NCBI GenBank assembly: GCA_024686215.1 | Contig: JAIBDN010000005.1 | Coordinates: 4,924-68,923, forward strand | Length of the DNA stretch: 64,000 nt | Reading direction: 5' to 3' | DNA from: Gammaproteobacteria bacterium | GTDB lineage: Bacteria > Pseudomonadota > Gammaproteobacteria > Pseudomonadales > Halieaceae | Shown: one piece after another, positions 6,261-35,552 of the stretch | How positions within the stretch are numbered: position 1 is the first letter of the stretch | Layout of the letters: each line of letters begins with the position of its first letter | Notes under the pieces: model-generated | The model's database searches: none | Told to the model about the DNA's origin: nothing | Seen by the model: only the letters and a program-made list of their open reading frames with translations | Program-made: the position numbers and the translations under genes

Positions 6261-6911
6261 CTATTTATCCGGCAACTTGAGGCCACAACCCTTAAGGATT
6301 ATACGTGTCAGATTATCCGACACGTCCTCGTAGTCATTACTGGTCAATTTCGACTTACCCAAACCGGCACACACCTGCAGGTTGAAATCAGCATAGTGCT
6401 GGGTCGCACTCCAGATCAGGAAAATCAGGTAATAGGGGTCTACCGCATCCATTTTCCCCTGCTCTATCCAGGCCTGAATGACACCCGCCTTGGCGTTAAA
6501 CCAGGGCCTGAATTCTTTTTTAAAGTAAACACTAAGGTTGGGCGCCCCATGGATAATTTCACTGGCAAAGATTTTTGATGCGTGGGGGTTGCTTCTGGAG
6601 TACATCACCTTGGCATGGATATAGGCACCCAGCGCCTCTGCCGGATCATCATCCGCGGTGATGCGACTGAAAGCATCGTTCCACAACTCGATAACACCGG
6701 TGAGGATAGCCATGTATAGGTCGAGTTTGCTGTTGAAGTAGTAGTGCACGTTGGTGCGCGGAATTCCCGCCCGCTTGGCGATACTGTTTATCGATGCACC
6801 CTGAAAACCATGCTCGGCAAACTCCTGCTCGGCGCTGCGCAGGATCTGGGCTTCATTATCCAGGCGGATACGGCCACTTTTATACACTTTTGCGCGCGAG
6901 TCTTTCGCCAT
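6261..6911 (-). CDS. TetR-family transcriptional regulator, RutR-like
   Basis: 216 aa. N-terminal HTH (INSIAKRAGIPRTNVHYYF). The C-terminal block LIFLIWSATQHYADF nearly matches E. coli RutR (LIFMIWASTQHYADF). It sits directly upstream of the xdh operon. Confidence 0.85.
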   Translation of the reverse strand: MAKDSRAKVYKSGRIRLDNEAQILRSAEQEFAEHGFQGASINSIAKRAGIPRTNVHYYFNSKLDLYMAILTGVIELWNDAFSRITADDDPAEALGAYIHAKVMYSRSNPHASKIFASEIIHGAPNLSVYFKKEFRPWFNAKAGVIQAWIEQGKMDAVDPYYLIFLIWSATQHYADFNLQVCAGLGKSKLTSNDYEDVSDNLTRIILKGCGLKLPDK

Positions 6912-7142
6912 TTTATTGTCCCTGAGTCAAAAAACTGACAGTCATGTCAGCTATTTGATTATTGCGCGAATCATCGCGCCCCTCAAGGAAAACAAGTTTA
7001 GCCTCACGGTGACCAACCAATGCTGCAGCCCCCGCGAATACTCCAGATAGCCATTGTTCGCAATTTTCACATAATTGAGAGGGAATTTTTACAACAAAAC
7101 CGCTAATTGGCGGTCTACACTTAAAGTGGTAGTGGTTAATTT

Positions 7143-7346
7143 ATGATCGAGAGCAAAATGAAAAGACTGGATGACGGCAAAACAAGCTTTGTTGAGTTTC
7201 TCAACAGCATCAAATTTGCCCAACACAACGACGCGAATCAGCGCGCCAAGTGCCCTACGCAGCACTTCGCCCATTTCAACCCGCGTGCCCGTGACAAAAG
7301 CGCGCTTAGCACTGAAGATTCGCAACTGATTCGCAGCGCCAACTAG
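7143..7346 (+). CDS. hypothetical small protein (62-67 aa)
   Basis: This is the only ORF in a ~550-bp gap with GC3-rich, host-like codon usage. It converges on the hydrolase gene, with a CCCTTCC...GGAAGGG hairpin between the two. The RBS is weak and I recognise no family. Confidence 0.3.
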   Translation: MIESKMKRLDDGKTSFVEFLNSIKFAQHNDANQRAKCPTQHFAHFNPRARDKSALSTEDSQLIRSAN

Positions 7347-7459
7347 GCGTCGCGACCCCTTCCTGCCTGACCGGTTGAACCCGGAAGGGTAAGTACGGCC
7401 CCGAAAAAACCCACACGAGCAAACACTTAAAACTCTTTTTGCGTCAGCCAAGCCGTGTT

Positions 7460-8290
7460 TCAGCGATTATGTGCCAGGCGCACGAAGGGTCTGATGCGCT
7501 CACTTTTACACAGGGCCCAGCGGTGTTGCGGCTCCACCAGGTGATTGGCAATAACGGCAAACACCAGCGGATTAAACGGAAAACCCACGTGACTGGCCAT
7601 GACCGCGACATTGGTGACATAGCGTGGATCGCCCTGACACCTGGCGATACCCGCCCCGACAATGCCATCGGACTCACTGTGTAAGGCCAGCACCGGCACC
7701 CGCAACTCACCGCCGCTATAGGTGTGCGCTACCCACCGCTCCAAAGCGGCGTCATCGACCTCATTGTTATAAAGATTGCCCATCACACTGTACAGCGCGG
7801 TACCACGCGGATCTCCATAGGGCGTGCCCAGGGTGATTGCCTGTCGCACCCACTGCGGGCAGCGATGCGCCAGGGCCACCGCATACAGACCACCGAGGCT
7901 CCAGCCAATAAGGGTAACCTTGCGCCCGGTAGCATTGAATTCCTTCTCCACCAGATCCGCAATCACATCCTCCGTCTCTGCACGGTGATCCAGAAAATCA
8001 TCGATATTTTGCGAGCGCACCTCAGCCGCGTTGCGGCCCAGCCCCCAGGGTATGGCGTTGTAGCCACGCTGGTTGAGAAATTTACGTAACTGGGACATGG
8101 AGCCATCGGCGCCCATAAAACCCGGCAGGGTCATAATGCTATGGCCGTCGCCGTCGGGCAGCGTCCTTAACAGTGGTCCCAGCATGGCGGTACTGCCCAT
8201 TTCCAGGATCACACGACCCAACTCCATCACACTGTGACGCAAACGGGGTGGGCGCAAATCCGGGGTAAAACTTTGGTACGTGGCTACCAT
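7460..8290 (-). CDS. alpha/beta-fold hydrolase
   Basis: GWSLGG nucleophile elbow. I chose ATG 8290 (MVATYQSF...) because a GGGAG RBS lies 5 nt upstream. The track ORF extends to 8377. Confidence 0.8.
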   Translation of the reverse strand: MVATYQSFTPDLRPPRLRHSVMELGRVILEMGSTAMLGPLLRTLPDGDGHSIMTLPGFMGADGSMSQLRKFLNQRGYNAIPWGLGRNAAEVRSQNIDDFLDHRAETEDVIADLVEKEFNATGRKVTLIGWSLGGLYAVALAHRCPQWVRQAITLGTPYGDPRGTALYSVMGNLYNNEVDDAALERWVAHTYSGGELRVPVLALHSESDGIVGAGIARCQGDPRYVTNVAVMASHVGFPFNPLVFAVIANHLVEPQHRWALCKSERIRPFVRLAHNR

Positions 8291-8438
8291 AAGGACTCCC
8301 TGTGAACAATTCACAGCCTCATTGTGGCCAGTATAGGGGCAGGAATACAGCGAAACCTGAGCAGCCCGGTTTAACAAATCATGCTAGAATTGCGCCCTTG
8401 GCAGCAATCCCTTGAAACCTTGATATAGCCCAAGCCCA

Positions 8439-9179
8439 GTGACCTCTGTGACTAATCCCCGCGATACCATCTACGCCGACCCGCTGTCCGAGACCGGCCT
8501 GTTCGCTTTTGACGACAACGTGGCCCGGGTTTTTCCAGACATGATCAAGCGCTCAGTGCCCGGCTACGCCACCATTGTCGCTATGACCGGCCTGCTGGCG
8601 GGCCGCTATGCCACGCCAGGCAGCGCCCTGTACGACCTGGGTTGCTCCCTGGGCGCTTCAACCCTGGCCATGCGCCAGAATCTGCGCCAGCCCGAATGCC
8701 GCATCATCGGCGTGGATAACTCCGCCTCCATGCTGGACCGCTGCCGCAGCATCATCGACACGGACACCCACGACACGCCGGTGGACCTGGTTTGCGCGAA
8801 CCTGCAGGACATCAGCATCGAAGACGCCTCGGTGGTGGTACTCAACTTCACCCTGCAGTTTATACCGCTGGAGATACGCGACGCGGTGCTACACAGCATC
8901 TACCAGGGTATGCGACCCGGCGGCATCATGGTGTTGTCCGAGAAGGTGACCTTTGCAGACCCGCACCTGGATGAACTGAATATCGACCTGCACCATCAGT
9001 TCAAGCGCGCCAACGGCTACAGCGAACTGGAGGTTGCGCAGAAGCGCAACGCACTGGAAAACGTGCTGCTGCCGGAAACTCTGCTGCAGCACAAAACACG
9101 TATCACCGAGGCCGGCTTCAGCAGTTGCGACGTATGGTTCCAATGCTTTAACTTCGCCTCTCTGGTCGCGCTGAAATGA
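8439..9179 (+). CDS. cmoA: carboxy-S-adenosyl-L-methionine synthase
   Basis: 246 aa. The N-terminus [26 protein letters not shown] and an SAM-MTase fold are typical of CmoA. The stop overlaps the cmoB start. Confidence 0.93.
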
Positions 9180-10174
9180 TCAATTACCAACCCTTGATAG
9201 AACGTTGGCAAGGCGGTGAACTTGATAGCTGGGCACTGGTCCTGGCCGAACAGATCGCCAAGGGGCTGGATAAAAAGCGCTATGGCGATCTGCCGCGCTG
9301 GCTGCAAGTGTTAGACGAACTACCCGATCTACAGCCCGATCGCATCCAACTCAACACTGCCCATGTGGGCGCCAGCCAGGACACCCCCCTGGATGAGGCT
9401 GCGACGCAACAGTTACGCGACACCCTGCAGGGACTGCACCCCTGGCGCAAGGGGCCCTTCGAGCTGTTCGGCGTACACATCGATACCGAATGGCGCTCCG
9501 ACTGGAAGTGGGATCGCTTGCAGGAGCGCATTGATCCATTGGCAGGCCGCCGTGTGCTGGACGTCGGTTGCGGCAGCGGCTACCACTGTTGGCGCATGCT
9601 CGGCGATGGCGCAGCGCAAGTGATTGGCATCGACCCCACCCCCCTGTTCGTGGTGCAGTTTTGGGCGCTGCAAAAATACCTGCAGCAGGACAACACCTGG
9701 GTGTTACCCCTGGGCATCGAACACGTGCCGCAGAAACTGCAGGCCTTCGATACCGTGTTTTCCATGGGCGTGCTCTACCACCGTCGCTCGCCCTTTGATC
9801 ATCTACAGGAATTGAAGGACTGCCTGAGGCCCGGTGGACAACTGGTGTTGGAGACGCTGGTGGTTGAGGGTGGATTGGGCGCCACTCTGCTGCCTGAGGG
9901 TCGTTATGCGCGCATGGGCAACGTTTGGTTTTTGCCCAGCACTGACACCTTGCTTAGCTGGCTGCGCAAACTGGGCTTTGTCGAGCCGCAACTGATAGAT
10001 ATCACGGTAACTTCAACCGAGGAACAACGCTCCACCGAGTGGATGAAGTTTCATTCACTGAGCAACTTCCTCGACCCCGAAGACAGGCAGAAAACTATTG
10101 AGGGTTACCCTGCACCACGGCGCGCCATCGTCACTGCCAAAGCACCCGGTAGCTGGCTGCCAACCAACGACTGA
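9176..10174 (+). CDS. cmoB: tRNA U34 carboxymethyltransferase
   Basis: 332 aa. Contains the LHPWRKGPF motif and [11 protein letters not shown], and is coupled to cmoA. Confidence 0.93.
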
Positions 10175-19333: not shown

Positions 19334-19383
19334 CGGGGGAACTGCGAGCGAGAACCATCGCAGCCCCATCCAAATACTGATAG

Positions 19384-21927
<2,544 letters not shown>

Positions 21928-21940
21928 CCCCTCACTGAGA

Positions 21941-22465
21941 ATGACTATGCACAGGCGCCTCGTCAGTTACACCCTCCTATTGAGCCTGCCCCTGGTGCTC
22001 AGCGCCTGCGGCTTCCAGTTACGCGGCGTGGGCGATAATGCCACCACCCTGCCCGACGACTGGAAGAACATGCATCTTGTTACCAGCAACCCCAACGGCG
22101 AGTTTAGTCGTGAAGTGGAAACCCGTTTTGCCGCACAGGGCATACAATGGAACACCTGGGAAGATGCCAATTACCGATTGGACCTGGGGGCCGAGCGCTT
22201 CAGCCAACGCAATCTGTCACTTAATGCCGAGGCCCGGGTGGCGGAATTTGAGCTGACCATGACCGCGCGCTTCTCAGTGCTGGACGCCGACAACCAGGTG
22301 ATCATTGCAGCCACCGAGGTCGCCGTGGTCCGCCAGATGGAAAATGATCCGCGCAATGTGGTGGGCAAGGCCGAAGAAACCCGCATCATCAAGTCCGAGA
22401 TGCGCGGCGACCTGGCGCGACAAATCATGCGCCGCATCGGCTTCTTCGCTTCCAGCAACGGCTAA
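21941..22465 (+). CDS. lptE: LPS-assembly lipoprotein LptE
   Basis: Lipobox LVLSAC|G after MTMHRRLVSYTLLLSLP. Lies in the conserved leuS-lptE-holA order. The track ORF start at 21818 lies inside leuS. Confidence 0.85.
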   Translation: MTMHRRLVSYTLLLSLPLVLSACGFQLRGVGDNATTLPDDWKNMHLVTSNPNGEFSREVETRFAAQGIQWNTWEDANYRLDLGAERFSQRNLSLNAEARVAEFELTMTARFSVLDADNQVIIAATEVAVVRQMENDPRNVVGKAEETRIIKSEMRGDLARQIMRRIGFFASSNG

Positions 22466-23476
22466 ATGCGGCTCTACCCCGAAAAGCTCTCGACTCACCT
22501 GCAACAGCAACTGCTGCCAGTCTATCTGGTGAGTGGCGACGAGCCACTGTTGCTGCAGGAATACAGTGACCAGATTCGGCGGAAAGCACGCGAGCAGGGC
22601 TGCAGCGAGCGGGAGGTAATCGATGCCGGGGTTTCCGGCTTCAACTGGCAGGATATCCTGCACAGCGCCACCAGCATGTCATTGTTTGCCGAGCGCAAAC
22701 TGGTAGAACTGCGACTGCCTAGTGGTAAGCCCGGCGCCGAGGGCAGCAAGGCCCTGTGTGAATACCTGGATATCGCCAGCGGTGAAGACGTGTTACTGAT
22801 CATCGCCGGCAAAATCGACAAGCAATCCACCAACAGTAAATGGTACAAGGCACTGGACAAAGCCGGGGCCACTGTACAGGTGTGGCCGGTAGACGCCAAG
22901 GAACTGCCGCGCTGGTTGCAACAACGGGTGCGCAACGCCGGCATGAGCATCGATAACGACGCCCTGCAATTACTCTGCGAGCGCGTGGAAGGTAACCTCC
23001 TGGCTGCAGTACAGGAGGTAGAAAAACTCAAACTGCTGGCAACGGATGCGCAAATCACCGCCGCAACCGTCACCGCTGCAGTCTCGGACAATGCCCGCTA
23101 CAACCTGTTTGGCATGACCGACTGCGCCCTGCAGGGTGATGCCACTGCCAGCCTGCGCATGTTGCACGGGCTGCGCGGTGAAGGCAGCGAGCCCCCCGTC
23201 ATCCTTTGGGCGCTGCTACGTGAAATTCGCACACTGGTCCAGGCGCAGCAGGCCTGCGATCAAGGGCAAAGTCCGCAGCAGGCACTGACTTCTCTGCGCG
23301 TGTGGAAAAACCGTATGGCACTTATGCAGGGCGCCCTGTCGCGTCACGACAAATTATCGCTGGAGAATTTGCTGGAGCAGGCGGCACAGACCGATGGCAG
23401 CATCAAGGGATTTGCTGACGGCAAGCCCTGGGATAACCTGGAAACCCTGGTCGTCGAGCTCTCTGGCATCCAGTAA
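22466..23476 (+). CDS. holA: DNA polymerase III delta subunit
   Basis: 336 aa. Begins LYPEKLSTHLQQQLLPVYLVSGDEPLL. The ATG directly abuts the lptE stop. Confidence 0.9.
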   Translation: MRLYPEKLSTHLQQQLLPVYLVSGDEPLLLQEYSDQIRRKAREQGCSEREVIDAGVSGFNWQDILHSATSMSLFAERKLVELRLPSGKPGAEGSKALCEYLDIASGEDVLLIIAGKIDKQSTNSKWYKALDKAGATVQVWPVDAKELPRWLQQRVRNAGMSIDNDALQLLCERVEGNLLAAVQEVEKLKLLATDAQITAATVTAAVSDNARYNLFGMTDCALQGDATASLRMLHGLRGEGSEPPVILWALLREIRTLVQAQQACDQGQSPQQALTSLRVWKNRMALMQGALSRHDKLSLENLLEQAAQTDGSIKGFADGKPWDNLETLVVELSGIQ

Positions 23477-23630
23477 AATTCTGCGCCTGAAACTCAGGAT
23501 TTTCGCAGGCAACCATACCCAATTTCTCCGCCACCCTTACCACAGAGTGTACCTGTCGCTTTTTCAAGCCGATGCATTTTTGCCAATTTATACCCGTCAT
23601 CAAGGGCTTGTATTATTCTCAACTCACGAC

Positions 23631-23650
23631 TACTGTATATATGAACAGTG
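23631..23650 (+). promoter_or_regulatory. LexA (SOS) box upstream of imuA
   Basis: TACTGTATATATGAACAGTG fits the gammaproteobacterial CTGT-N8-ACAG consensus. It lies 31 nt upstream of the imuA ATG. Confidence 0.85.
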
Positions 23651-23665
23651 TATATAAACACAGTA
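23646..23665 (-). promoter_or_regulatory. second, weaker overlapping LexA-like box
   Basis: The reverse strand reads TACTGTGTTTATATACACTG, which matches TACTGTATATATATACAGTA at 16/20 positions. The second half-site is ACAC rather than ACAG. Confidence 0.45.
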
Positions 23666-23680
23666 TTCGGAGGCAGCATC

Positions 23681-24412
23681 ATGAACGAAGCATTGCAGCA
23701 GGTTATCAATCGTAACGACACCTGGCGTGGCAACCAGGGTCGCTTTGCCAATCAATTCCTGTCCGCCAATAGCGCGCAGCACCGGGATGACGGCAAGCTG
23801 CCCACCGGTTACTGCTCACTGGACAACGAACTACAGCAAGGCGGCTGGCCCCTGGGTAATACCATTGAGCTACTCAGTGATGGCTGCGGCCTCGGGTCCA
23901 TGGGACTGTTCCTGCCCGCCATGGAGGCTCTCAGTGCGCAGGGGCGCTGGCAGGTGTTTATCGCGCCGCCCTACACCCCCTATGCCCCCCTGCTGTCAGC
24001 GCGGGGTATCGATACGCAGCAGGTCCTGCTGGTACATCCAAAGTCCCGGGAGGACCTGTTGTGGGCCACCGAGCAGGCACTGCGCAGCAGCACCTGCAGC
24101 GCGGTTTTCAGCTGGCTGGGCAGCCACAATTACAGCTACACCGAGCTGCGTAAACTGCAGTTGGCCGCCGCCAGCGGCGACAGCCTGGGAATATTGTTCC
24201 GCCCCAACCAGGCCGCCCACAACCACTCCCCGGCCAGCCTGCGATTGCAAATGCGCGAATACCGCAAGGTGCACATCCTCAAGCAGCGCGGGGGCAACCA
24301 GGACATCGATGTGGATCTACCCCCTTCAGAGGATGTGCCACAGCAACCGCAATTGTGGGAGCTGCCCGCCTGGAACAGTGATCTGGCGCAACAGAGCACA
24401 GCTCTGGCGTAG
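23681..24412 (+). CDS. imuA: translesion-synthesis-associated protein ImuA (SulA/RecA-like)
   Basis: Matches Pseudomonas ImuA in pattern (PTGY..LD..L.GGWP...IAPPYTPYAP...LWATEQALRS..C.AV..W...ELRKLQLAA...FRP...SPASLRL...ILKQRGG). A GGAGG RBS precedes ATG 23681. SOS box upstream. Confidence 0.8.
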   Translation: MNEALQQVINRNDTWRGNQGRFANQFLSANSAQHRDDGKLPTGYCSLDNELQQGGWPLGNTIELLSDGCGLGSMGLFLPAMEALSAQGRWQVFIAPPYTPYAPLLSARGIDTQQVLLVHPKSREDLLWATEQALRSSTCSAVFSWLGSHNYSYTELRKLQLAAASGDSLGILFRPNQAAHNHSPASLRLQMREYRKVHILKQRGGNQDIDVDLPPSEDVPQQPQLWELPAWNSDLAQQSTALA

Positions 24413-24529
24413 AACCTGCTGCAGCCCTGTGCACAACAGGGCTGCAAAGATCTATACTGCTCCCCTGGTGAACGTGACTGCGCCATCGCAGCATGTCAGC
24501 CTGACCACACGCAATACAGGGGAAAAGTC

Positions 24530-24967
24530 ATGCAGGATCTGCCACACCACTACCACGTCAACGCCAATGCCGAAGCCCAGGGCAACATCGTCCTGAAAAC
24601 AGATAACCTGCCACAATTGATCTCCGCTCCCCCGGCAGAATTCGGCGGGCCCGGCGATCAGTGGTCACCAGAGCACCTACTGGTGGCATCTGTGGCCGAC
24701 TGCTTCATCCTTACTTTCCGGGCCATCGCCAGAGCCTCGAAACTGGAATGGAGCAACCTGGAAAGCTCCGCTACCGGCGTACTGGATCGCGTCGATCGGG
24801 TGACCTGTTTTACCGGATTTACGGTAACGGCCACACTGACACTGCCTGCAGGCAGTGATAGCAGCAAAGCCCAACGCCTGCTGGAAAAAGCCGAGGGAGC
24901 CTGTCTGATCACCAATTCGCTGACAGCTGAAGTCCACCTGGAAACCGAAATCATTGTCGCGTCCTGA
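24530..24967 (+). CDS. OsmC/Ohr-family protein
   Basis: 145 aa. Contains the OsmC-like blocks SPEHLLVASVADCF and AEGACLITNSL. Confidence 0.8.
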   Translation: MQDLPHHYHVNANAEAQGNIVLKTDNLPQLISAPPAEFGGPGDQWSPEHLLVASVADCFILTFRAIARASKLEWSNLESSATGVLDRVDRVTCFTGFTVTATLTLPAGSDSSKAQRLLEKAEGACLITNSLTAEVHLETEIIVAS

Positions 24968-24982
24968 AACGGGAGCCACCCC

Positions 24983-25441
24983 ATGGATACAGACCTGACC
25001 GGCAGTTGCCAATGCGGTGCTGTCGCTTTCACGGTGGCGACAGCGCCGCTGCTCACCTATGCCTGCTTCTGCCACAGCTGCCAGAAACGCACCGGTAGTG
25101 CTTTCAGTATGGGCTTGATTATTCCCACAGAGGCCCTGCAGCTAAGCGGTGATCTCACCGCCTGGAGCCGCACGTCGGATGATGGCAACAGCAACACCCG
25201 CTACAGTTGTAGCGACTGCGGTAATATCATCTACGGTGTCGGCGAATCCAGTCCGGGCCTGGCCAAATTGCAGGCGGGCTTACTGGAGGACACGCGTAAC
25301 GTTGAGCCTGAAGTGTATATCTGGGCAACCAGCAAGCAATCCTGGGTGACCCTGCCAGCACACGCCCAACCCTTCGACACCCAACCGGACGATGCCATGG
25401 AAATGCTGGCGGCCGCCCAGACCTACCGCGAGGCACGCTAG
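24983..25441 (+). CDS. GFA (CENP-V/glutathione-dependent formaldehyde-activating) family protein
   Basis: 152 aa. The Cys pattern CQCG...CFCHSCQKRTGS...CSDCG is typical of the GFA zinc sites. Confidence 0.8.
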   Translation: MDTDLTGSCQCGAVAFTVATAPLLTYACFCHSCQKRTGSAFSMGLIIPTEALQLSGDLTAWSRTSDDGNSNTRYSCSDCGNIIYGVGESSPGLAKLQAGLLEDTRNVEPEVYIWATSKQSWVTLPAHAQPFDTQPDDAMEMLAAAQTYREAR

Positions 25442-25444
25442 TAC

Positions 25445-25651
25445 ATGGATGAGTGGCTCACTGAATACGGTGTCACCCTTGGCGTGGGCGCCCTTATCCT
25501 GTTTATGCTGTTTATCGTGTGGGATCTGGCCAAGCGCAGCAACGCCGGCAAATTCGGCACCATGATTCTCTATATAGGCCTGGCCATGGGCATCGCCGGC
25601 TTCTTGATGAAGTTCATCATCACCTACCTGCTGGAAAACGCGGGGGTGTAG
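25445..25651 (+). CDS. small two-TM membrane protein (DUF2788-like)
   Basis: 68 aa with two hydrophobic helices. It starts 3 nt after the GFA stop. Confidence 0.65.
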   Translation: MDEWLTEYGVTLGVGALILFMLFIVWDLAKRSNAGKFGTMILYIGLAMGIAGFLMKFIITYLLENAGV

Positions 25652-25736
25652 ATCAGTGAGCGAGGTTAAGGGCCGCTCCCGGTATTACTCGCTCCATTGA
25701 TTACCAGGCAATGATGCTGGCAACCCTATTTGCGGC

Positions 25737-26045
25737 TTATTTCTCTGCCACCATATCGGTGCGAATCTGATACTCGGTGATTTCCTGTTCGTACTGCCCG
25801 GATAGCGCAGACACCCTCGCTGCCAGGGCACGATGCTGCCGACTATTCATCACCTTACAATCCATATAGGCCTCTGCCTGCAGTATGTAGCTCTCCGCAG
25901 CGAGTTGCGCCTCATACATGTCCTCTTTGCTTGCGACTGCGCCGTCGGGCAGCACTGGGGCGTCGCCCGGCCTTTTCACAGGGCAGGCAGCAGAGGTATT
26001 CAACGCCGCTAACATCAGGGCGGTTGCGAGTACGGTCTTCATCAT
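25737..26045 (-). CDS. hypothetical exported protein
   Basis: 102 aa. Signal peptide MMKTVLATALMLAALNTSAA, a GGAGG RBS, and two Cys in the mature part. I recognise no family. Confidence 0.6.
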   Translation of the reverse strand: MMKTVLATALMLAALNTSAACPVKRPGDAPVLPDGAVASKEDMYEAQLAAESYILQAEAYMDCKVMNSRQHRALAARVSALSGQYEQEITEYQIRTDMVAEK

Positions 26046-26394
26046 AAGACCCTCCTTTTGTAACTATAAGTAACATTACTTATGTGTTGTTACCAACTAT
26101 CCACATTTAGCCCTGCACACGCAATGCATTTATTATGATTTATTGGCTAAAAATCCCCTTAAAATTACCTGTATTTATTGTGATCCAGTAGCTCATCACA
26201 CGCACCACTTTGTAACATTTAGTAACAAAAAACACCAAGCCTACCCTGAGGCCAGTGTATTCGCCGCAATAGTGACCAACGCACACCCTGCAATTCGAAT
26301 ATACGAGGGAGGAAGGTCGCTATTATCCGCCTGCCGCACAGCCCATGGATGTTCGGCAGTAGACAAGCCTCCCGGTATCCCTAATACTGTATAT

Positions 26395-26414
26395 ATGTAC
26401 AGTACAATCTATAT
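26395..26414 (+). promoter_or_regulatory. LexA (SOS) box upstream of imuB
   Basis: TACTGTATATATGTACAGTA is a perfect palindromic CTGT-N8-ACAG box. It lies ~43 nt upstream of the imuB start. Confidence 0.9.
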
Positions 26415-26456
26415 AATGGGGACATTGCCCCCGCCAAATAATGTCCCACACCCACG

Positions 26457-27893
26457 GTGGACCAGGTGAGCCTGTGGCTTTGCCTGCGCTTTGCGCAACT
26501 ACCCTTGCAATGCCTGAGCCACACCGAAGACCAGCCGGTGATAGTGCTGGCGGGGCAGCGCGTGGTATGCGCCAACGACTGCGCCGCGACTCTGGGCATA
26601 CAAGCGGACATGACCAGCGCCACGGTGCGGGCACTGGCCGGGACCGATCCGGTACAACTGCTGGAAAGAGACGAGACTGCCGAGCAACGCCGCCTGCAAC
26701 AGCTGTGTTGCTGGGCATACAGCATCACTCCCACACTGCATACCTGGCGCAAGGATTGCCTGCAACTGGAAATCGGCGGGTGCCTGAACCTGTTCCAGGG
26801 ACTCGGCGCCCTGCTGGCGGAAGTGCGCAGCGGCATAGGCAAGCGCGGCTATTGCGCGCAATATGGCCTGGCGCCGACGGCCAAAGCTGCATGGCTACTG
26901 TCTTTTGCTGATGACGATACTGCGGCCGCCATACAACACCCCCTGGAAGAGCGCCTCGCCCCCCTCCCCCTGCGCTTACTGGATGACTTCTCCCCCACGA
27001 TAGACTCCCTGCGCCGCGCCGGACTACACTCCCTGGGCGACATCCTGGCGCTGCCACCAGCGGCACTGGCGCGTCGCTGCGGCAAAGCATTCACCCATTT
27101 TCTGCAGCAGATGCTGGGACAGCTGGAAGACTTGCAGATACATTACCAACCGCCCACCACTTTCAGCGACGAATACTGGTTCGGTTACGAGGTGAAGGCG
27201 AATGCTGAATTGTTGCCAGCGGCGCAGTTGTTGCTGCAATCACTGTGCCGTTTCCTGCGCAACACCCAGCTACAGACCAGCGAGATAACCTGGCAACTGG
27301 TAGGTATTGATCACCGGGTACATGAGGTCGCCGTGCGCAGCACCAGCAGCCACAGCGACTGGAGAAACTGGCATCAGCTCACCCGCATTCGCTTTGAACA
27401 ACTGCAACTGACCAACAGCGTGGAAGGCCTGACCCTCACCAGCCGGCAACTGCATGCCGGCGAGCTGGACAGCATCGACCTGTTCAGCCCCGCCAGCCAA
27501 CGCGAACCTCTGGCCGCCCTGCTGGATCGCCTGGGCAGCCGCCTGGGGCTTCAGGCAATCGAGAAAATAGGCTACCGCGACGAGCACCTGCCGGAACTGG
27601 CACTGCATATCAGCAACGACAGCGCCGGGGAAGCGCACGGCAATGAACCAGACTGCGCCCAGCGCCCTTTCTGGCTAATGCCACAGCCCCAGCTCCTGCG
27701 ACAGCAACGCCAGCAGTTGTACTGGAAGCGCGCACTCAAACTGCTATATGGCCCGGAACGTATTGAAGATAACTGGTGGCAAGAGGCGATCAGCCGCGAC
27801 TATTACATCGCCACGGATGACCTGGGGCAACACTACTGGATATTTCGCGATCGACTGGCGCAGCAGTGGTATATCCACGGAGTGTTTGCCTGA
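26457..27893 (+). CDS. imuB: Y-family polymerase-like protein ImuB
   Basis: 478 aa. The LWLCLRF...LPLQ N-terminus is typical of ImuB, it has its own SOS box, and it partners with imuA/dnaE2. Start is GTG 26457 or GTG 26466. Confidence 0.85.
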   Translation: MDQVSLWLCLRFAQLPLQCLSHTEDQPVIVLAGQRVVCANDCAATLGIQADMTSATVRALAGTDPVQLLERDETAEQRRLQQLCCWAYSITPTLHTWRKDCLQLEIGGCLNLFQGLGALLAEVRSGIGKRGYCAQYGLAPTAKAAWLLSFADDDTAAAIQHPLEERLAPLPLRLLDDFSPTIDSLRRAGLHSLGDILALPPAALARRCGKAFTHFLQQMLGQLEDLQIHYQPPTTFSDEYWFGYEVKANAELLPAAQLLLQSLCRFLRNTQLQTSEITWQLVGIDHRVHEVAVRSTSSHSDWRNWHQLTRIRFEQLQLTNSVEGLTLTSRQLHAGELDSIDLFSPASQREPLAALLDRLGSRLGLQAIEKIGYRDEHLPELALHISNDSAGEAHGNEPDCAQRPFWLMPQPQLLRQQRQQLYWKRALKLLYGPERIEDNWWQEAISRDYYIATDDLGQHYWIFRDRLAQQWYIHGVFA

Positions 27894-27954
27894 ACCTGCG
27901 CATCATGGGAACACCCAGCAAGGGCCGCGGTTAAAATTTCACCGGGAATCGTAA

Positions 27955-28113
27955 CTAGCGGGTGATCAGCCACAGCGCATGCAAGATACCCGGCACATAG
28001 AAGAACAGGCATAGCACAATATTAATCAACAGGTCCTTGCCCGCGCCATTGTTCAAAAACACAGCAACCGGCGGTAACAGGATCGCGAGAATCATCAGTA
28101 TCGCTTTATTCAT
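27955..28113 (-). CDS. YqaE/Pmp3-family small membrane proteolipid
   Basis: MNKAILMILAILLPPVAVFLNNGAGKDLLINIVLCLFFYVPGILHALWLI. The 52-aa form starting at ATG 28113 matches the family size. Confidence 0.8.
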   Translation of the reverse strand: MNKAILMILAILLPPVAVFLNNGAGKDLLINIVLCLFFYVPGILHALWLITR

Positions 28114-28200
28114 AACACTATTCCCTATAGACAATAAAAATGGCAAACATCAGGGCTCTACCTATGCATAGGCCGGCGACAAATTTTTGTGTGTCGGCTT

Positions 28201-28677
28201 TCATGCTGACGGTTGCCCTATTTCTGCAAAGATACCACCCACCAACTGCACCAGATCATCAGGGGCCAGCTCAATTTCCAGGCCCCTGCGGCCCGCGCTG
28301 ACATAAACCGTTTGGTGGTTTCTGGCGGATGTATCAATCACCGTTTTCAGGCGTTTTTTCTGTCCCAGCGGACTGACGCCACCCAGAACGTAACCGGTTG
28401 AACGCTCCACATCGACCTGCGCAGCCATCACCACCTTCTTCGCACCGGCCGCCCTGGCCATGGCTTTGAGACTGAGCATGGCGCATACCGGCACCACCGC
28501 TACAGCCAGGAATGCATTATCCAGGCTCACCACCAGGGTCTTGAATACCCGCTGTGGAGATACTCCCAGCTTCTCAGCCGCTTCCAGCCCATAGGACTCA
28601 CTGGCAACTGCATGCGCATATTCATGTATTTGATACTCAAGCCTGGCCTGCCTGACGATATTCACTGCTGGTGTCAT
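28201..28677 (-). CDS. ybaK: Cys-tRNA(Pro)/Cys-tRNA(Cys) deacylase YbaK
   Basis: 158 aa. YbaK/EbsC-type blocks (FKTLVV; GYVLGGVSPLGQKK). Confidence 0.85.
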   Translation of the reverse strand: MTPAVNIVRQARLEYQIHEYAHAVASESYGLEAAEKLGVSPQRVFKTLVVSLDNAFLAVAVVPVCAMLSLKAMARAAGAKKVVMAAQVDVERSTGYVLGGVSPLGQKKRLKTVIDTSARNHQTVYVSAGRRGLEIELAPDDLVQLVGGIFAEIGQPSA

Positions 28678-28811
28678 GTCATCCTTATTTGCTGTCGGGC
28701 CGCGCTATGCATGAAATCATTCCCGGCTGCGATAGCCGCCCATTTAAGACAATACGCAGGGCTATAACAAGCCCGCAGGAACAACAGACTTGAAATAATT
28801 GAATTATCATA

Positions 28812-28831
28812 TACTGTATATATATACAGTA
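28812..28831 (+). promoter_or_regulatory. LexA (SOS) box upstream of dnaE2
   Basis: TACTGTATATATATACAGTA is identical to the E. coli-type consensus. It lies 26 nt upstream of the dnaE2 ATG. Confidence 0.9.
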
Positions 28832-28856
28832 TTGCTGAATATCCCCCAAACCATAT

Positions 28857-31800
28857 ATGCCCTACGCCGAACTTCACTGCCTCAGCTGCTACAGCTTCCT
28901 GCGCAGCGCTTCCCACCCACAGGAACTGGTGGAACGCGCCGCACAGCTGGGTTATAGCGCATTGGCCATCACTGACGAGTGCTCCCTGGCGGGGGTGGTA
29001 AAAGCCCATGTAGCGGCAAAAGCACTGGACATGCAGCTGATTATCGGCAGTGAACTGCAACTGGATGAAGGCATTCGCCTGCTGGCGCTGGCACCGTCAA
29101 GGGCCGCCTACAGTGAGTTGTCCGGGCTGATCAGCATGGCCCGGCGACGCAGCCCCAAAGGGCAATACCGGGCGGCACTGCGCGATGTCATGTTCCACCT
29201 CAAACGTTGCCTGCTGATCTGGCTGCCTGACGCTGATAACGAGACCAATCGTGCCTGGGGCCAGCAGTTACAACGCCTGTGCAAGCAGCGGGTATGGCTG
29301 GGTATCAGCCACCTGCTGGGTAACAATGAGGTGGCACGCTACCAGTCACTGTGCCAGCTGGCTGCAGTTACCGGCCTGCCTATGGTCGCCTGTGGCGATG
29401 TACAGATGCACTGTGCCACACGCAAACCCTTGCACGATGTATTCACCGCCCTGCGCCATAACACCAGTATCGAGCAACTGGGTCGGCGGCGACTGGGCAA
29501 CAGCCAGCAACACCTGCGCGACCTGCACAAGCTACAGCGCCTATATCCCGCCGCACTGCTACAAGAGACTTTGCACATCGCCGGTTTGTGCAATTTTACT
29601 CTGGACGAATTGCGCTACGAATATCCACAAGAGGTAGTGCCATCGACATACACAGCCAACAGCTACTTGCGAGAACTGGTCACCAGCGGCGCGGCCATGC
29701 GCTGGCCTGCGGGCGCGCCACCTGACATACAACAGCGTATTGAGCGGGAACTGCTACTGATACAGGAACTGGAATACGAGTATTACTTTCTCACCGTGTA
29801 CGACATCGTGCGCTTTGCCCGGGAGCGCGATATTCTGTGCCAGGGGCGGGGCTCGGCGGCCAACTCGGTGGTGTGCTATTGCCTGTTCATCACCGAGGTC
29901 TCACCCGAACAGATATCCCTGCTGTTCGAGCGCTTTATCTCCAGGGAACGGGACGAGCCTCCTGATATCGATGTGGACTTCGAACACGAGCGCCGTGAAG
30001 AAGTCATCCAGTACATCTATCGCAAGTACAGCCGCAAGCGCGCGGCGCTGGCCGCCACCATCATCACCTACCGTTCGCGCAGTGCCGTGCGCGATGTGGG
30101 CAAGGCACTGGGCCTGGATCCGGTATTCGTGAATGACCTGGCCAAATCACTGGCCTGGTGGGACCGCAGCGCAGACCTGGCTAAACGCTTTGAGGAACAG
30201 GGCGTCGCACAACACAGCCGTCAGGCCGAGTTATTCTACCGTCTGGTACAGGAAATTCTCGGCTTCCCCCGCCACCTGTCACAACATGTAGGTGGCTTCG
30301 TCATTACCCGCAGCCCCATCTCCACCCTGGTGCCCGTGGAGAACGCCAGCATGGCAGAGCGCACGGTGATCCAGTGGGACAAGGAAGACATAGAATCCCT
30401 GGGCCTGCTGAAAGTAGACATCCTGGCACTGGGCATGCTGTCCGCCATCCGCAAGAGCCTGCAACTGGTGCATCGCTACCAACCCGGCATCAAAACTATC
30501 GGTGATGTTCCCAGGGAGGATCAGCCTACCTACCGCATGTTGCAGGCCGCCGACACCGTCGGCGTATTCCAGATAGAGTCCCGGGCTCAGATGTCCATGC
30601 TGCCGCGACTTAAACCGGCATGCTTTTACGACCTGGTGATAGAAATCGCGATCGTGCGCCCTGGGCCAATACAGGGGGATATGGTGCATCCCTACCTGCG
30701 CCGCAAGCAGGGCCTGGAGCAGATTACCTACCCCAGTGAGGCCATCAAGTCAGTGCTGGAACGCACCCTGGGAGTACCGATTTTCCAGGAGCAGGTGATC
30801 CGACTGGCCATGGTGGCAGCGGGCTTCAGTGGTGGTGAAGCAGACCAGTTGCGCAGGGCCATTACCAACTGGGGCAGAAACAGCAAACTACTCACCTTCG
30901 AGAAGAAGCTCACCCGGGGCATGATCGAACGTGGCTACGACGAGGATTTTGCCCGACGCTTATTTGAACAGATCAAGGGCTTTGGCGGCTACGGCTTTCC
31001 CGAGTCCCACTCTGCCAGCTTTGCCCTGCTGGCCTATGTCTCAGCCTGGCTCAAGTGCCACCACCCGGCGGCTTTCTTCGCCGGCTTGCTCAACAGTCAA
31101 CCCATGGGGTTTTACAGCCCTTCACAGCTGGTGCAGGATGCGCGCCGCCACGGCGTCAGCGTATTGCCGGTGGATATCAACCAGAGTGACTGGGACCACC
31201 AACTGCTGGACAGCCGCCAGGGCTTGTCAGCGCAGCCGCCATTGCGACTGGGCCTGCGCCTGGTAAAAGGCCTGAGCAGGGAAGGGGCACAACGTATCGT
31301 GGAAGCGCGCAGGCAAGCGCCCTTTCGCCAGGTCAGTGAGTTACGCCAGAGAACCCGCCTGGATAAACGCGATATGGAGGCCCTGGCAGACGCCGATGCC
31401 TTGCGCTCATTAAGTGGTCACCGCCACCAGTCCCAGTGGCAGATTATGGCCCTGGAGCAAGCGCGGCCACTGCTGCAGGACGAACTGCAACAGCCGGCCA
31501 GTTATTTCGATGATGCCGTGCAGTTACCTGCACCACAGGTCGCAGAAGAAGTACTGTCAGATTACCGCGCCACTGGCCTCACCCTGCGCGCCCACCCCAT
31601 GAGCCTGTTGCGTGAACGTTACCCGTTCAATCGTTGCAAACGCCATACGGACCTGGAAGATATTGGCAACAACCGTTTCGTGCGCATCGCCGGACTGGTC
31701 ACCTGCCGGCAGCGCCCGGGCAGTGCCTCCGGTGTGTTATTTCTTACACTGGAAGACGAAACCGGCAGCAGTAATATCGTGGTATGGCAGCGCACTCAGC

Positions 31801-31955
31801 AACAATTTCGCCAGGCGCTGATGACAGCACAGTTGCTACTGATCAAGGGCACAGTTGAAACCAAGGACAATGTCATTCATGTAATCGCCGGCGCATTGCA
31901 CGATTACAGCAACGAGTTGCAAGCGCTACAGCTTAGCTCGCGCGACTTCCGCTGA
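28857..31955 (+). CDS. dnaE2: error-prone DNA polymerase III alpha-like subunit DnaE2 (ImuC)
   Basis: 1032 aa. PHP domain start MPYAELHCLSCYSFLRSAS, pol III alpha core, and a size typical of DnaE2 rather than DnaE1. Confidence 0.95.
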   Translation: MPYAELHCLSCYSFLRSASHPQELVERAAQLGYSALAITDECSLAGVVKAHVAAKALDMQLIIGSELQLDEGIRLLALAPSRAAYSELSGLISMARRRSPKGQYRAALRDVMFHLKRCLLIWLPDADNETNRAWGQQLQRLCKQRVWLGISHLLGNNEVARYQSLCQLAAVTGLPMVACGDVQMHCATRKPLHDVFTALRHNTSIEQLGRRRLGNSQQHLRDLHKLQRLYPAALLQETLHIAGLCNFTLDELRYEYPQEVVPSTYTANSYLRELVTSGAAMRWPAGAPPDIQQRIERELLLIQELEYEYYFLTVYDIVRFARERDILCQGRGSAANSVVCYCLFITEVSPEQISLLFERFISRERDEPPDIDVDFEHERREEVIQYIYRKYSRKRAALAATIITYRSRSAVRDVGKALGLDPVFVNDLAKSLAWWDRSADLAKRFEEQGVAQHSRQAELFYRLVQEILGFPRHLSQHVGGFVITRSPISTLVPVENASMAERTVIQWDKEDIESLGLLKVDILALGMLSAIRKSLQLVHRYQPGIKTIGDVPREDQPTYRMLQAADTVGVFQIESRAQMSMLPRLKPACFYDLVIEIAIVRPGPIQGDMVHPYLRRKQGLEQITYPSEAIKSVLERTLGVPIFQEQVIRLAMVAAGFSGGEADQLRRAITNWGRNSKLLTFEKKLTRGMIERGYDEDFARRLFEQIKGFGGYGFPESHSASFALLAYVSAWLKCHHPAAFFAGLLNSQPMGFYSPSQLVQDARRHGVSVLPVDINQSDWDHQLLDSRQGLSAQPPLRLGLRLVKGLSREGAQRIVEARRQAPFRQVSELRQRTRLDKRDMEALADADALRSLSGHRHQSQWQIMALEQARPLLQDELQQPASYFDDAVQLPAPQVAEEVLSDYRATGLTLRAHPMSLLRERYPFNRCKRHTDLEDIGNNRFVRIAGLVTCRQRPGSASGVLFLTLEDETGSSNIVVWQRTQQQFRQALMTAQLLLIKGTVETKDNVIHVIAGALHDYSNELQALQLSSRDFR

Positions 31956-32015: not shown

Positions 32016-32597
32016 TCAATCCCAGCCTTCAACCCCCGACATATCGGGCAGCCGGTGCGCTATGCCCTTGTGGCAATCAATGCAGGTTTTCTCGCCGCTG
32101 GCCAATGCGGTGGAGTGTTGGTAAGAAGCGCGCGTACTCTGCCAGGTGAAATCCATATACTCGAAGTCGTGACAGTTGCGGCACTCCAGCGAATCATTGG
32201 CTTTCAGACGCGCCCATTCATTTTCCGCCAGATGGCGGCGCCGCGCGAGAAACTTCTCCTGGGTGTTGATAGTGCCCATCAGGAACGCCCAAACCTCTTT
32301 CGAGGCCTGCATTTTACGTGCAATTTTATCTGTCCAATCGTGGGGCACATGACAGGAAGAGCAAATAGCCCTGACGCCAGAACGGTTGGTGAAGTGAATC
32401 GTGGACTGCAATTCCTCGTACAGGTTCTCGTGGCAACTGGTGCAAAAAGTCTCGGAGTTGGTAAATTCCATGGCCGTATTGAAACCACCCCAGAACATGA
32501 TACCCATGACAAACCCGCCCAGGGTAAGGAACCCCAGGCTGAAATATTTGCTGGGACGGGAAATCGTGCGCCAGTAGCGTCGGATCAGGTCTATCAC
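32016..32597 (-). CDS. napC: NapC/NirT-family tetraheme cytochrome c
   Basis: 193 aa. N-terminal TM plus four CxxCH motifs (CTSCH, CSSCH, CRNCH, CIDCH). Confidence 0.92.
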
Positions 32598-32608
32598 GGT
32601 GTTATCCC

Positions 32609-33055
32609 CTATTCGCTATCGCGACGCAGTATTTCGTCGATGTCGACAAACTCATTTGCCAGCAGGGGCTTCACAGTATCCTGGGTAACATGACACTGCT
32701 GACAGAAATAGCGCCTGGTGGAGATATCTGCCAGGAAGTTGCCATCACGATCCTGGTAGTGGGTAACACTGACCATAGGTGCCTGGCTGTCCTGACTGCG
32801 GCGCCGACTGTGACAAGACATGCACTTGTTGGCATTAAGATCCACCTGGTACTGATCTACCTTATGCGGAATAGTCGGTGGCTGCATCGGGTAGGCGCGC
32901 TTGCGCTTGATGTCGCTATTATCCACACGGGCCATTTTCGCCGGCTCCAGTTCCACATCGATTGCGGCGTTGCGTGTAGTGGCGATATTCTGGGCCAGAG
33001 AACCCGCGGCAATGCCGAGGGCCAAAATGACTGTAGTGACTATGCTAATTTTCAT
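32609..33055 (-). CDS. napB: periplasmic nitrate reductase diheme cytochrome c subunit
   Basis: Signal peptide [14 protein letters not shown] and two CxxCH motifs (CMSCH, CQQCH). I chose ATG 33055, which has a GGAGG RBS. The longer track ORF overlaps napA. Confidence 0.9.
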
Positions 33056-33065
33056 CGCCTGCCTC

Positions 33066-35552
33066 CTATGCCTTTTCCACTTTGATTGCGCATTTTTTGA
33101 AATCCGTCTGTTTGGAGAGCGGATCGGTCGCATCCAGCGTCACCTTGTTAATCAATTGCGCGGAATCGAACCAGGGCACGAATACCAGCCCCTGAGGCGG
33201 CTTGTTACGACCACGGGTTTCCACCCGGGTACGAATCTCACCGCGCCGTGAAATAATCTTCACCTCATCACCGCGGCGCAGTTTACGCTTGCGCGCGTCC
33301 TCCGGGTGCATATAGACCACGGCACTGGGAACGGCTTTGTGCAACTCCGGAACGCGGCGCGTCATCGAACCGGAGTGCCAGTGTTCCAGCACCCGACCAG
33401 TGGACAACCACAGATCGTATTCCTCATCCGGACTCTCAGGTGCAGGCTCATACGGCAGGGCGAACACCACCGCCTTGCCATCGGGCTTGCCGTAAAACTG
33501 GAAGTCGCTGCCCGCTTCCACATAGGGGTCAGAGCCTTCCTTGAAACGCCAGAGCGTCTCTTTACCATTCACCACTGGCCAGCGTTTGCCGCGATTCTGG
33601 TGGTAGTTATCAAAGTCATCCAGGTCATGTGCCTTACCGCGGCCAAAGGCTGCATATTCTTCAAACAGCCCTTTCTGGATATAAAATCCGAAGTCCTCTG
33701 CCTCGTGATTGGCGTAGCCCTCTTCCATGTCGGACAGGGGAAAGCGATCCACCTGGCCGTTGGCATAGAGCACATCAAACAGGGTCTTACCCTTGTACTC
33801 AGGGTTGGCATCCAGAATGTCTGCAGGCCACACTTCATCCGTGGTGAAACGCTTGGAAAACTCCACCACCTGCCACATATCGGACTTTGACTCTCCCGGG
33901 GCATCTACCATCTGGTGCCAGAACTGCGTGCGCCGCTCAGCATTACCGAAGGCGCCTTCTTTCTCTACCCACATCGCAGAGGGCAGGATCAAATCCGCGG
34001 CCTGGGCCGTTACGGTGGGGTAGGCATCGGATACCACAATAAAATTATCCGGGTTACGATAACCGGGCAGGGTCTCCCCATTCAGGTTGGGCGCCGCCTG
34101 CACATTGTTGTTGACCTGTACCCAGTAGGCGTTGATCTTGCTGTCTTTCAAATCGCGGCCCTGCTTGACCGCGTGAGAACCATTCCAGTCAGGCAATATA
34201 CCCTCTGGCAGCTTCCACTTTTTCTCGGCAATTTTGCGGTGTTCCGGGTTCACCACCACCATGTCAGCAGGCAAACGGTGGGAGAAGGTGCCTACTTCTC
34301 TGGCGGTACCACAAGCCGAGGGCTGCCCCGTCAATGAAAAGGGGCTATTGCCGGGCTCGGATATCTTGCCGGTCAGCAAGTGCACGTTGTACAGCATATT
34401 GTTCACCCAGACACCGCGGGTATGCTGGTTAACACCCATGGTCCACAGGGACATCACCTTGATGTCGGGATCGGCATACATCTCCGCAAGAGCGCGTAAT
34501 TGCTTCACCGGTACACCGCTCAACTTGGAGACACTGTCCTCGTCGTAGTCGGCAACAAATGCGGCAAACTCCTCGAAGCTCATGGGTTCCGAGGCGCCAC
34601 TATCAGGGTTTTCCGCTTTTTGCTGCAACGGGTTCTCCGGGCGCAGCCCATAGCCAATATCCGCCGCACCTTTACGGAAGTTGACGTGCTTGCTGACAAA
34701 GTCCTTGTTGACCTTGTCATTCTGGATAATGTAGTTGGCAATGTAATTGAGCATGGCCATATCTGTTTGCGGGGTAAAGATCACCGGCAAATCCGCAAGC
34801 TCAAAAGAGCGGTGCTCAAAGGTCGACAGTACAGCTACATTTACGTGGGGGTTACTCAAGCGACGGTCGGTGATCCTGGTCCACAGGATGGGATGCATCT
34901 CCGCCATATTGGAGCCCCACAGCACGAAGGCATCCGCTGCCTCCAGGTCATCGTAACAACCCATGGGCTCATCGATGCCAAAAGTACGCATAAAGCCGCC
35001 CACCGCTGAGGCCATGCAGTGGCGAGCATTGGGGTCAATGTTGTTGGACAGAAAGCCTGCCTTGTATAACTTGGATGCAGCATATCCCTCCCACACAGTC
35101 CATTGGCCAGAACCGAACATGCCCACGCCGCGCGGGCCCTTTTCCTTGAGCGCCGCTTTGAACTTTACCTCCATAATATCGAAGGCTTCGTCCCAGCTTA
35201 CCGGGGTAAATTCGCCGTCCTTAGCGTATTTGCCGTCGGTTTTGCGCAGCATGGGTTGTGTCAGTCGATCCTCGCCGTACATGATCTTCGACAGGAAGTA
35301 GCCCTTGATACAAGCCAGGCCCTTATTCACCGGTGACTTGATATCGCCGTGGGTAGCCACTACCCGGTTATCGCGTGTGGCAACATTGATACTGCAACCA
35401 GTACCACAAAAGCGGCAGGGTGCCTTTGACCATTTCAGCTTGGTGTCTGTGGTTATCAGATTGGTAGCATTGGAAGACGCTGTGATTCCAGCGGCTGCAG
35501 CAGCAGTTGCAACGGCGTTGGCCTTGATAAAATCGCGACGGGTTGAGCTCAT
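33066..35552 (-). CDS. napA: periplasmic nitrate reductase catalytic subunit
   Basis: 828 aa. Tat signal [12 protein letters not shown], an N-terminal 4Fe-4S Cys cluster (CRFCGTGC) and a MoCo domain. Confidence 0.95.

Follow-up and report, generated by a model that had tools for sequence, protein, structure and literature searches.

We analyzed a 64,000-nucleotide stretch of DNA (hereafter, the window) from a gammaproteobacterium of the family Halieaceae (GenBank assembly GCA_024686215.1, contig JAIBDN010000005.1, positions 4,924 to 68,923 of the forward strand). It holds what is very probably a split, LexA-controlled imuA-imuB-dnaE2 (imuABC) cassette that is run as three independent SOS promoters. 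The three genes are colinear and lie on the same strand within a span of 8.3 kb (Table 1). They are separated from one another by other genes, and each is preceded by a predicted LexA box of its own, 25–61 nt before the start codon.

Identity of the mutasome genes

An earlier reading of this DNA (the original prediction) had described an imuA-imuB-dnaE2 cassette that is split with gene order and strand retained, and profile searches of the window proteins bear out the gene identities and this arrangement. ImuA, besides matching its equivalog model, also matches the SulA family (PF03846). Homologues of ImuB are likewise 475 amino acids (aa) long and are labelled ImuB by JGI and NCBI. At the N-terminus of ImuB (VSLWLCLRF), the DxD catalytic motif of active Y-family polymerases is absent, and the clamp-binding-like motif LDSIDLF (IDLF) is invariant across the homologue alignment. 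Judged by its sequence, then, ImuB is an inactive Y-family-like scaffold with a putative clamp-binding motif. DnaE2 contains PHP, Pol3 alpha, finger, HHH_6 and OB domains, and its score against the model for replicative DnaE (NF004226) is 609.9 bits, short of the cutoff of 1002.

The canonical imuABC cassette is a single contiguous transcription unit, an arrangement that this locus does not have. Instead, all three genes are separated, with a box before each, which corresponds to the split configuration designated 'A,B,E2'. There is no lexA2 gene in the cassette.

LexA boxes and promoter elements

The sequence TACTGTATATAT occurs exactly at positions 23631, 26385 and 28812, upstream of imuA, imuB and dnaE2, respectively, compared to 0.06 matches expected by chance. 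All three cores fit the gammaproteobacterial palindrome CTGT-N8-ACAG with a TA-rich spacer. A box matrix was built from 144 sites of relatives, the consensus of which is TACTGTATATATATACAGTA; when run over the window, it found no site of at least 12 bits beyond these three. CTGT-N8-ACAG itself occurs four times in the window. We rejected the fourth copy (29390–29405, CTGTGGCGATGTACAG) as an operator and attribute it to chance, as it falls within the coding part of dnaE2, its spacer is GC-rich and its score stays under 12 bits.

The original prediction of one box per gene with a common core is thus upheld, except that the middle box lies at 26385 rather than 26395. The accompanying statement that two of the boxes are perfect palindromes is incorrect. 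Only the dnaE2 box, which is identical to the family consensus, is perfect, with 9 of 10 pairs palindromic in the imuB box and 7 of 10 in the imuA box. Also overlooked was a second, overlapping box at imuA, the core of which (23648–23663) has one G in common with that of box 1 and adjoins the imuA ribosome-binding site on its upstream side. At 10.8 bits on the strict family matrix, this is a weak site. The tandem geometry is nonetheless kept in eight relatives from at least two clades (L032, L003, L071, L064, L070, L062, L052 and L046; L numbers designate loci of the comparison set described below), and in the relatives with tandem boxes the first box is weakened (…AACAGTG). Colicin genes have double operators, in which overlapping SOS boxes with such geometry bind two LexA dimers. 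The imuA operator resembles these in having two CTGT-N8-ACAG-type cores that share one base pair, and differs in that its second core is degenerate (GTGT); we regard the likeness as a lead only.

Conserved –35-like hexamers, identified as consensus matches, lie ∼17 nt upstream of each of the three boxes. The TTGTAT of imuA corresponds to a strongly conserved block, CTTGCATTC, which 67 imuA loci of Halieaceae carry at an equal distance from the box. For imuB, a –35 block of high information content, cTGGACAA, keeps a constant distance to the box in 72 loci. It lies 17 nt upstream of the –10-like AATACT, which overlaps the left half of the box (box 2 in the window). For dnaE2, CTTGAAA is also seen ∼16–17 nt before the box in L166 and L085, and a TtGAcA-like block is conserved in other relatives. 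Given this spacing, the left half of each box is predicted to overlap the –10 and start-site region, such that bound LexA would block RNA polymerase. Upon DNA damage, RecA-stimulated self-cleavage of LexA would release all three promoters. ImuA (RecA-like), ImuB (scaffold) and DnaE2 (error-prone polymerase) would then be made together despite the separation of their genes, and act jointly.

The imuA-imuB split in relatives

For comparison, we assembled 166 related loci. The window proteins and the box matrix were mapped onto 80 species-representative Halieaceae loci, and a further 80 loci came from a metagenome scan with DnaE2. Same-species contigs from five other samples match the window at 97.8–99.96% identity across the locus, with gene order and all three boxes unchanged; they were reached through the ImuB cluster, as an exact look-up of the window DnaE2 matched no record in its index. 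A sibling species (ImuB 88% identical) also retains the layout and its boxes, in the order imuB, pmp3, a cupin gene and ybaK (these three on the opposite strand), box, dnaE2. By its ImuB homologues, the window belongs with the Halieaceae (Halioglobus-like), and among the species-representative genomes the best ImuB match is 76% identical.

Throughout the Halieaceae, imuA and imuB are split, with an interval that ranges from about 0.7 kb to >9 kb and contents that turn over between species (varying combinations of osmC, GFA, DUF2788, the secreted-protein gene and others). A box precedes imuA in nearly all relatives. Of the Halieaceae loci, 78 extend upstream of imuB, and 71 of these have an imuB box. 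It usually starts 81 nt ahead of the start codon, as it does in the window and in 35 of 72 loci.

The seven loci that lack an imuB box can be accounted for. In L058, L061, L066 and L076, imuB follows imuA by 23–165 bp. In L014, it lies 28 bp after DUF2788. In L078, the imuB start overlaps the stop of a macro-domain gene within an imuA-DUF2788-macro-imuB chain; this gene (9489–10004) encodes an O-acetyl-ADP-ribose deacetylase (NF001664, 213 bits). Hence, in six of the seven, imuB abuts a co-directional chain that begins with a boxed imuA. In the seventh, L080, insertion sequence (IS) elements truncate the 5' end of imuB, and transposase-like genes adjoin (4800–10000).

On a midpoint-rooted neighbor-joining tree of ImuB, the box-less loci form five lineages, each nested among boxed closest relatives, a pattern that points to repeated secondary deletion rather than repeated gain. 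Most simply, the boxed split would be ancestral to the sampled Halieaceae, with the contiguous loci arising by later deletions. We also considered contiguous imuA-imuB as the ancestral state and set this aside as less parsimonious, because the box-less lineages are nested and the boxed relatives share one promoter architecture. The original prediction had proposed that related genomes be compared to date the insertions. By this comparison, the split is family-wide and not peculiar to the window genome, and since split and boxes are common across the Halieaceae, both are, on the phylogenetic distribution, old.

These data bear on whether the imuB and dnaE2 boxes are operators at all. If they were inert AT-rich palindromes or relics, the two genes would be expressed constitutively or by read-through, and the split would have uncoupled them from the SOS response. 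TA-rich palindromes do look like –10 elements and might persist as promoter sequence. However, the full TACTGT-N8-ACAGTA motif is retained in about 70 species while its flanks diverge freely, the box is lost precisely where co-transcription from imuA becomes possible, and the opposite-strand genes between the units make read-through unlikely. We therefore consider inert boxes highly improbable.

It is equally hard to believe that the split cassette is decaying and that the three genes no longer form a joint mutasome. Splitting is often a step towards loss, and there are relatives in which imuB is damaged (the IS-truncated gene of L080) or possibly so (that of L032, apparently frameshifted or extended). 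In the window, however, the open reading frames (ORFs) of imuA, imuB and dnaE2 are all intact and full length, and DnaE2 scores far above its family cutoff. ImuB is 63–76% identical across the Halieaceae, with many invariant residues that include the clamp-binding-like motif, and the three-unit layout is common to the family, including the divergent Luminiphilus type.

Separated and contiguous dnaE2 genes

In most Halieaceae, dnaE2 lies >10 kb from imuB. In every case seen in relatives, a separated dnaE2 with a visible start has its own box 21–66 nt upstream, and all close relatives from the metagenome scan have a dnaE2 box. The imuB-dnaE2 gap of the window (963 bp) is shorter than that in all 80 species-representative loci; only a Luminiphilus-type locus, L089, is tighter (∼0.65 kb). 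The Luminiphilus-type loci have the same three-box layout, with an opposite-strand blc gene between imuB and dnaE2.

Distant relatives, defined by a DnaE2 identity of no more than 60%, present the converse arrangement. Where imuB is upstream of dnaE2 (51 distant loci), the two genes are contiguous in 49, with gaps of no more than 343 bp and no internal box. The other two have gaps of 3.7–4.5 kb, and there a dnaE2 box is present. Several stand-alone or convergent dnaE2 genes in distant relatives are also boxed. Relatives with the same split and no boxes, which the original prediction had named as an observation that would count against it, were sought in about 160 loci and not found. These comparative data (71 of 78 imuB genes boxed, the seven exceptions explained, no internal box in distant contiguous cassettes) indicate that own boxes are kept by selection only where the genes are separated.

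Alternatively, the internal boxes might mainly control their divergent neighbors, box 2 the secreted-protein gene and box 3 ybaK-pmp3, with imuB and dnaE2 expressed in some other way. The geometry of the locus allows this, as the divergent intergenic region that contains box 3 is 179 bp long, with the box 135 bp away from where ybaK starts, and box 2 is within the divergent region upstream of the 102-aa gene (sec102). Box 2, however, is 340 bp from the sec102 start codon, and in most relatives ybaK and pmp3 are not beside the dnaE2 box. Moreover, box position is fixed with respect to imuB (–81) and dnaE2 (about –24) regardless of the upstream neighbor, which may be sec102, co-directional genes, blc, an integron integrase gene or nothing recognizable. 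Control of imuB and dnaE2 themselves is the reading we retain, and the odds that the boxes serve mainly the neighbors seem very slim.

In three relatives, an integron integrase gene (intI) lies directly upstream of dnaE2 (TIGR02249, 315–415 bits versus a cutoff of 265). The positions of such arrangements, with intI beside dnaE2 or the cassette, are 8975–13096 in L085, 94–1155 in L091, 642–1487 in L084 and 6108–7079 in L098. In L085, one LexA box lies in front of intI, and dnaE2, which begins 3 nt beyond the stop codon of intI, is without a box of its own; small toxin-antitoxin-like ORFs upstream resemble a cassette array. No intI was found in the window.

Intervening genes and spacers

Family matches and ORF calls confirm all of the intervening genes named in the original prediction. 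The imuA-imuB gap is 2053 bp and contains five features (osmC, GFA, DUF2788, the minus-strand 102-aa gene and a spacer), while the imuB-dnaE2 gap contains two minus-strand genes, pmp3 and ybaK. OsmC, GFA, DUF2788, Pmp3 and YbaK all pass their family cutoffs; the 102-aa ORF gave no family match in profile searches. Coordinates are collected in Table 1.

Table 1. Positions of mutasome genes, predicted regulatory elements and intervening features in the window
Feature	Positions	Strand	Remarks
imuA	23681–24412	+	243 aa, RecA/SulA-like mutasome component; NF033429 ImuA_translesion equivalog, 212.5 bits (cutoff 150)
imuB	26466–27893	+	475 aa from GTG start; PF00817, 33.9 bits (cutoff 23.2)
dnaE2 (imuC)	28857–31955	+	1032 aa, error-prone C-family polymerase; NF004225, 1414.3 bits (cutoff 939)
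LexA box 1 (imuA), predicted	23631–23650		TACTGTATATATGAACAGTG; 27.2 bits
Second overlapping LexA-like box (imuA), predicted	23646–23665		CAGTGTATATAAACACAGTA; core GTGT-N8-ACAG
LexA box 2 (imuB), predicted	26385–26404		TACTGTATATATGTACAGTA; 35.8 bits
LexA box 3 (dnaE2), predicted	28812–28831		TACTGTATATATATACAGTA; 20-bp palindrome, 36.8 bits (matrix maximum)
–35-like hexamer (imuA)	23608–23613	+	TTGTAT, 17 nt upstream of box 1; consensus-based
imuB promoter, predicted	26360–26388	+	–35 TAGACA 26360–26365, 17-nt spacer, –10-like AATACT 26383–26388; consensus scan
–35-like hexamers (dnaE2)	28790–28804	+	TTGAAA 28790–28795 (16 nt before box), TTGAAT 28799–28804; read from sequence
OsmC-family peroxiredoxin-like gene	24530–24967	+	PF02566, 61.7 bits; passenger in imuA-imuB interval
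GFA-family gene (glutathione-dependent formaldehyde-activating enzyme-like)	24983–25441	+	PF04828, 98.1 bits; passenger
DUF2788 membrane protein gene	25445–25651	+	68 aa; PF10981, 74.2 bits
Secreted/lipoprotein-like gene (sec102)	25737–26045	–	102 aa; ORF call, signal-peptide-like N-terminus
pmp3 (proteolipid membrane potential modulator)	27955–28146	–	PF01679, 72.8 bits; gene callers give 52-aa form
ybaK, Cys-tRNA(Pro) deacylase	28201–28677	–	TIGR00011, 178.5 bits (cutoff 153.25); divergent from dnaE2
GC-rich stem-loop	24420–24449	+	directly after imuA stop; 11-bp stem, no U-tract

An OsmC gene occupies the same slot in many relatives, but no passenger between imuA and imuB is as constant as DUF2788, seen in this slot in L001–L078 and L086. 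At 72–96% identity (mostly at least 80%), the DUF2788 proteins of relatives are more conserved than ImuA or ImuB (about 65–84%), and DUF2788 was not seen within the cassette of distant relatives. The minus-strand 102-aa gene keeps its position in many Halieaceae at 36–78% identity and, by its orientation, is an obstacle to simple read-through into imuB. In the other gap, pmp3 is at the same place in same-species contigs and in the sibling species. Recent horizontal insertion of the intervening genes was considered and rejected, as their GC content is ordinary and the same genes fill the slot family-wide.

Since osmC, GFA and DUF2788 are co-directional with imuA and follow it with short gaps, they may share its transcript; in L014 and L078, genes of this kind sit within a box-less chain from imuA to imuB. 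In the window, though, the 131-nt interval after imuA has a predicted minimum free energy of –54.2 kcal/mol (z-score –3.79), and the stem-loop located there is possibly a partial terminator or an mRNA-end hairpin. Overlapping this stem-loop, a consensus scan identified a promoter-like TGCACA-17-TATACT (24430–24458).

The spacer between imuA and imuB is AT-rich, as originally described (25900–26299; 47% GC versus about 58–60% in the flanking genes). A repeat search of the spacer returned short two-copy motifs only, and an Rfam scan of the whole window gave zero matches. Two copies of TTTGTAAC-N4/5-AGTAACA (26057–26075 and 26209–26227) lie in the spacer upstream of the minus-strand secreted-protein gene and may be a regulator site for that gene.

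The locus is flanked upstream by leuS-lptE-holA (∼19350–23476) and downstream by a minus-strand periplasmic nitrate reductase (nap) cluster (∼32016–35552), both identified from gene calls on a same-species contig, L161. Across the Halieaceae, holA is the conserved left neighbor of imuA.

Extended palindromes at imuB boxes

In about half of the Halieaceae species, the imuB box is the center of a 34–42-bp palindrome. Extensions of at least 6 bp were seen at 33 of 72 imuB boxes, compared to 1 of 68 imuA boxes and 0 of 11 dnaE2 boxes; examples are L002, L004 (9906–9953), L019, L031, L051, L054, L065, L088 and L089, with about 25 more. The outer arms vary between species yet stay complementary. There are 30 distinct arm sequences, those of the Luminiphilus-type loci being unrelated, and the number of Watson-Crick cells at arm pairs 3–10 is 337, versus 226 ± 10 in shuffles. 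As a pointer to whether the palindromes act in RNA, the arm mismatches were compared by type: A:C (77) outnumbers G:T (38), which would fit minus-strand wobble pairs, although this signal is weak and confounded by relatedness. The imuB box of the window has no extended palindrome. The leader downstream of it (26419–26449) does contain a motif, ATGGGGnnAnTGCCCCC, that is kept in many relatives ∼15 nt after the box; in addition, the window has its own longer inverted repeat, GGGACATT-N14-AATGTCCC.

Both a functional hairpin or cruciform and a neutral extension by template switching are possible. A broader proposal is that the imuB operator is a LexA site plus more, with the palindromes serving, as cruciforms in DNA or hairpins in RNA, as a further level of imuB regulation, and that the imuA-imuB interval is a conserved slot that has drawn stress genes into the SOS regulon. 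Such genes may include those for OsmC, GFA, DUF2788 and the macro-domain deacetylase. We think this proposal unlikely. In an alternative account, the passengers are not SOS-controlled, and the palindromes are a neutral by-product of template switching that perfects a quasi-palindrome whose flanks are unconstrained.

Discussion

The reading we favor, of three independent SOS promoters, leaves the origin of the extra operators to be accounted for. The original prediction held that SOS control was kept after the split through re-acquisition or duplication of operators. Retention is supported by the own boxes across relatives. Duplication of the imuA operator is not, as the consensus promoter regions of imuA, imuB and dnaE2 share no similarity beyond the 20-mer itself. 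These sequences agree better with de novo gain or with an origin too ancient to be traced.

The predicted operators also differ in quality. That of dnaE2 is a perfect consensus, that of imuB has one imperfect pair, and that of imuA is weaker and includes the second weak overlapping box. It follows that the components may be released at different LexA levels. Staggered release, and hence independent tuning of the three components, is plausible by analogy with Myxococcus xanthus DK1622. That organism has the order A-B-E2, independent promoters and SOS boxes at imuB and dnaE2, with dnaE2 set apart by 6.57 kb of other genes, and after UV irradiation imuA is induced earlier than imuB and dnaE2 (bioRxiv 10.1101/2020.12.14.422803). 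Its gene order matches that of our locus, as does the provision of a promoter region for each gene, which is predicted here. In M. xanthus, however, imuA and imuB are adjacent, imuA is unboxed and the motif is deltaproteobacterial, whereas in our locus each of the three genes has a box and 2 kb separate imuA from imuB.

Several considerations weigh against our interpretation. The promoter hexamers are consensus matches, with more than one candidate –35 for both imuA and dnaE2. How far the first transcription unit extends is uncertain, given the stable hairpin and the promoter-like site that separate imuA from osmC. Matrix scores, not measured affinities, underlie the order of induction that we predict. 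The lexA gene lies outside the window, so the binding specificity of LexA is assumed from the motif itself, and a literature search found no paper on the SOS response of Halieaceae.

Earlier work has documented how imuABC genes are arranged. Wherever the cassette occurs, its regulation by LexA persists (PMC3323433). Canonical operons include lexA2-imuA-imuB-imuC of Pseudomonas putida and imuAB-dnaE2 of Caulobacter crescentus (reviewed in PMC3901139), and almost all of the distant relatives recovered here are of this type. The Halieaceae locus encodes the same trio of proteins with gene order and strand unchanged, and here too a LexA box precedes imuA. It departs from the canonical operon in its two interruptions, in having three operators instead of one and in the lack of lexA2 in the cassette. 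In Mycobacterium tuberculosis, imuA'-imuB and dnaE2 are at separate loci, both LexA-controlled (PMC3901139). There too the cassette is split and every part keeps its LexA control, which for our locus is a prediction. The M. tuberculosis split, however, is two-way, between distant loci, and involves imuA' and an actinobacterial SOS box; ours is three-way, colinear and contained within 8.3 kb.

The novelty implied by the original prediction was overstated. Separate loci for imuA, imuB and imuC with one SOS box per gene have already been described (PMC3901139; PMC3919608), and the 'A,B,E2' category, in which all are separated, has been tabulated among 1669 genomes (bioRxiv 10.1101/2020.12.14.422803). 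The locus adds a new, well-conserved case to a known configuration rather than representing a system of a new kind, and the known workings of the imuABC system are unchanged by it. Its value is as a natural experiment for the established rule that LexA control of imuABC persists whatever the arrangement of its genes. Across >150 loci, the genes have an internal operator exactly where co-transcription is interrupted and lose it where a deletion re-fuses them, which is good comparative evidence that co-regulation is under selection. Cultured Halieaceae (Halioglobus, Seongchinamella, Pseudohalioglobus) offer a system for asking whether operator strength staggers the parts of the mutasome.

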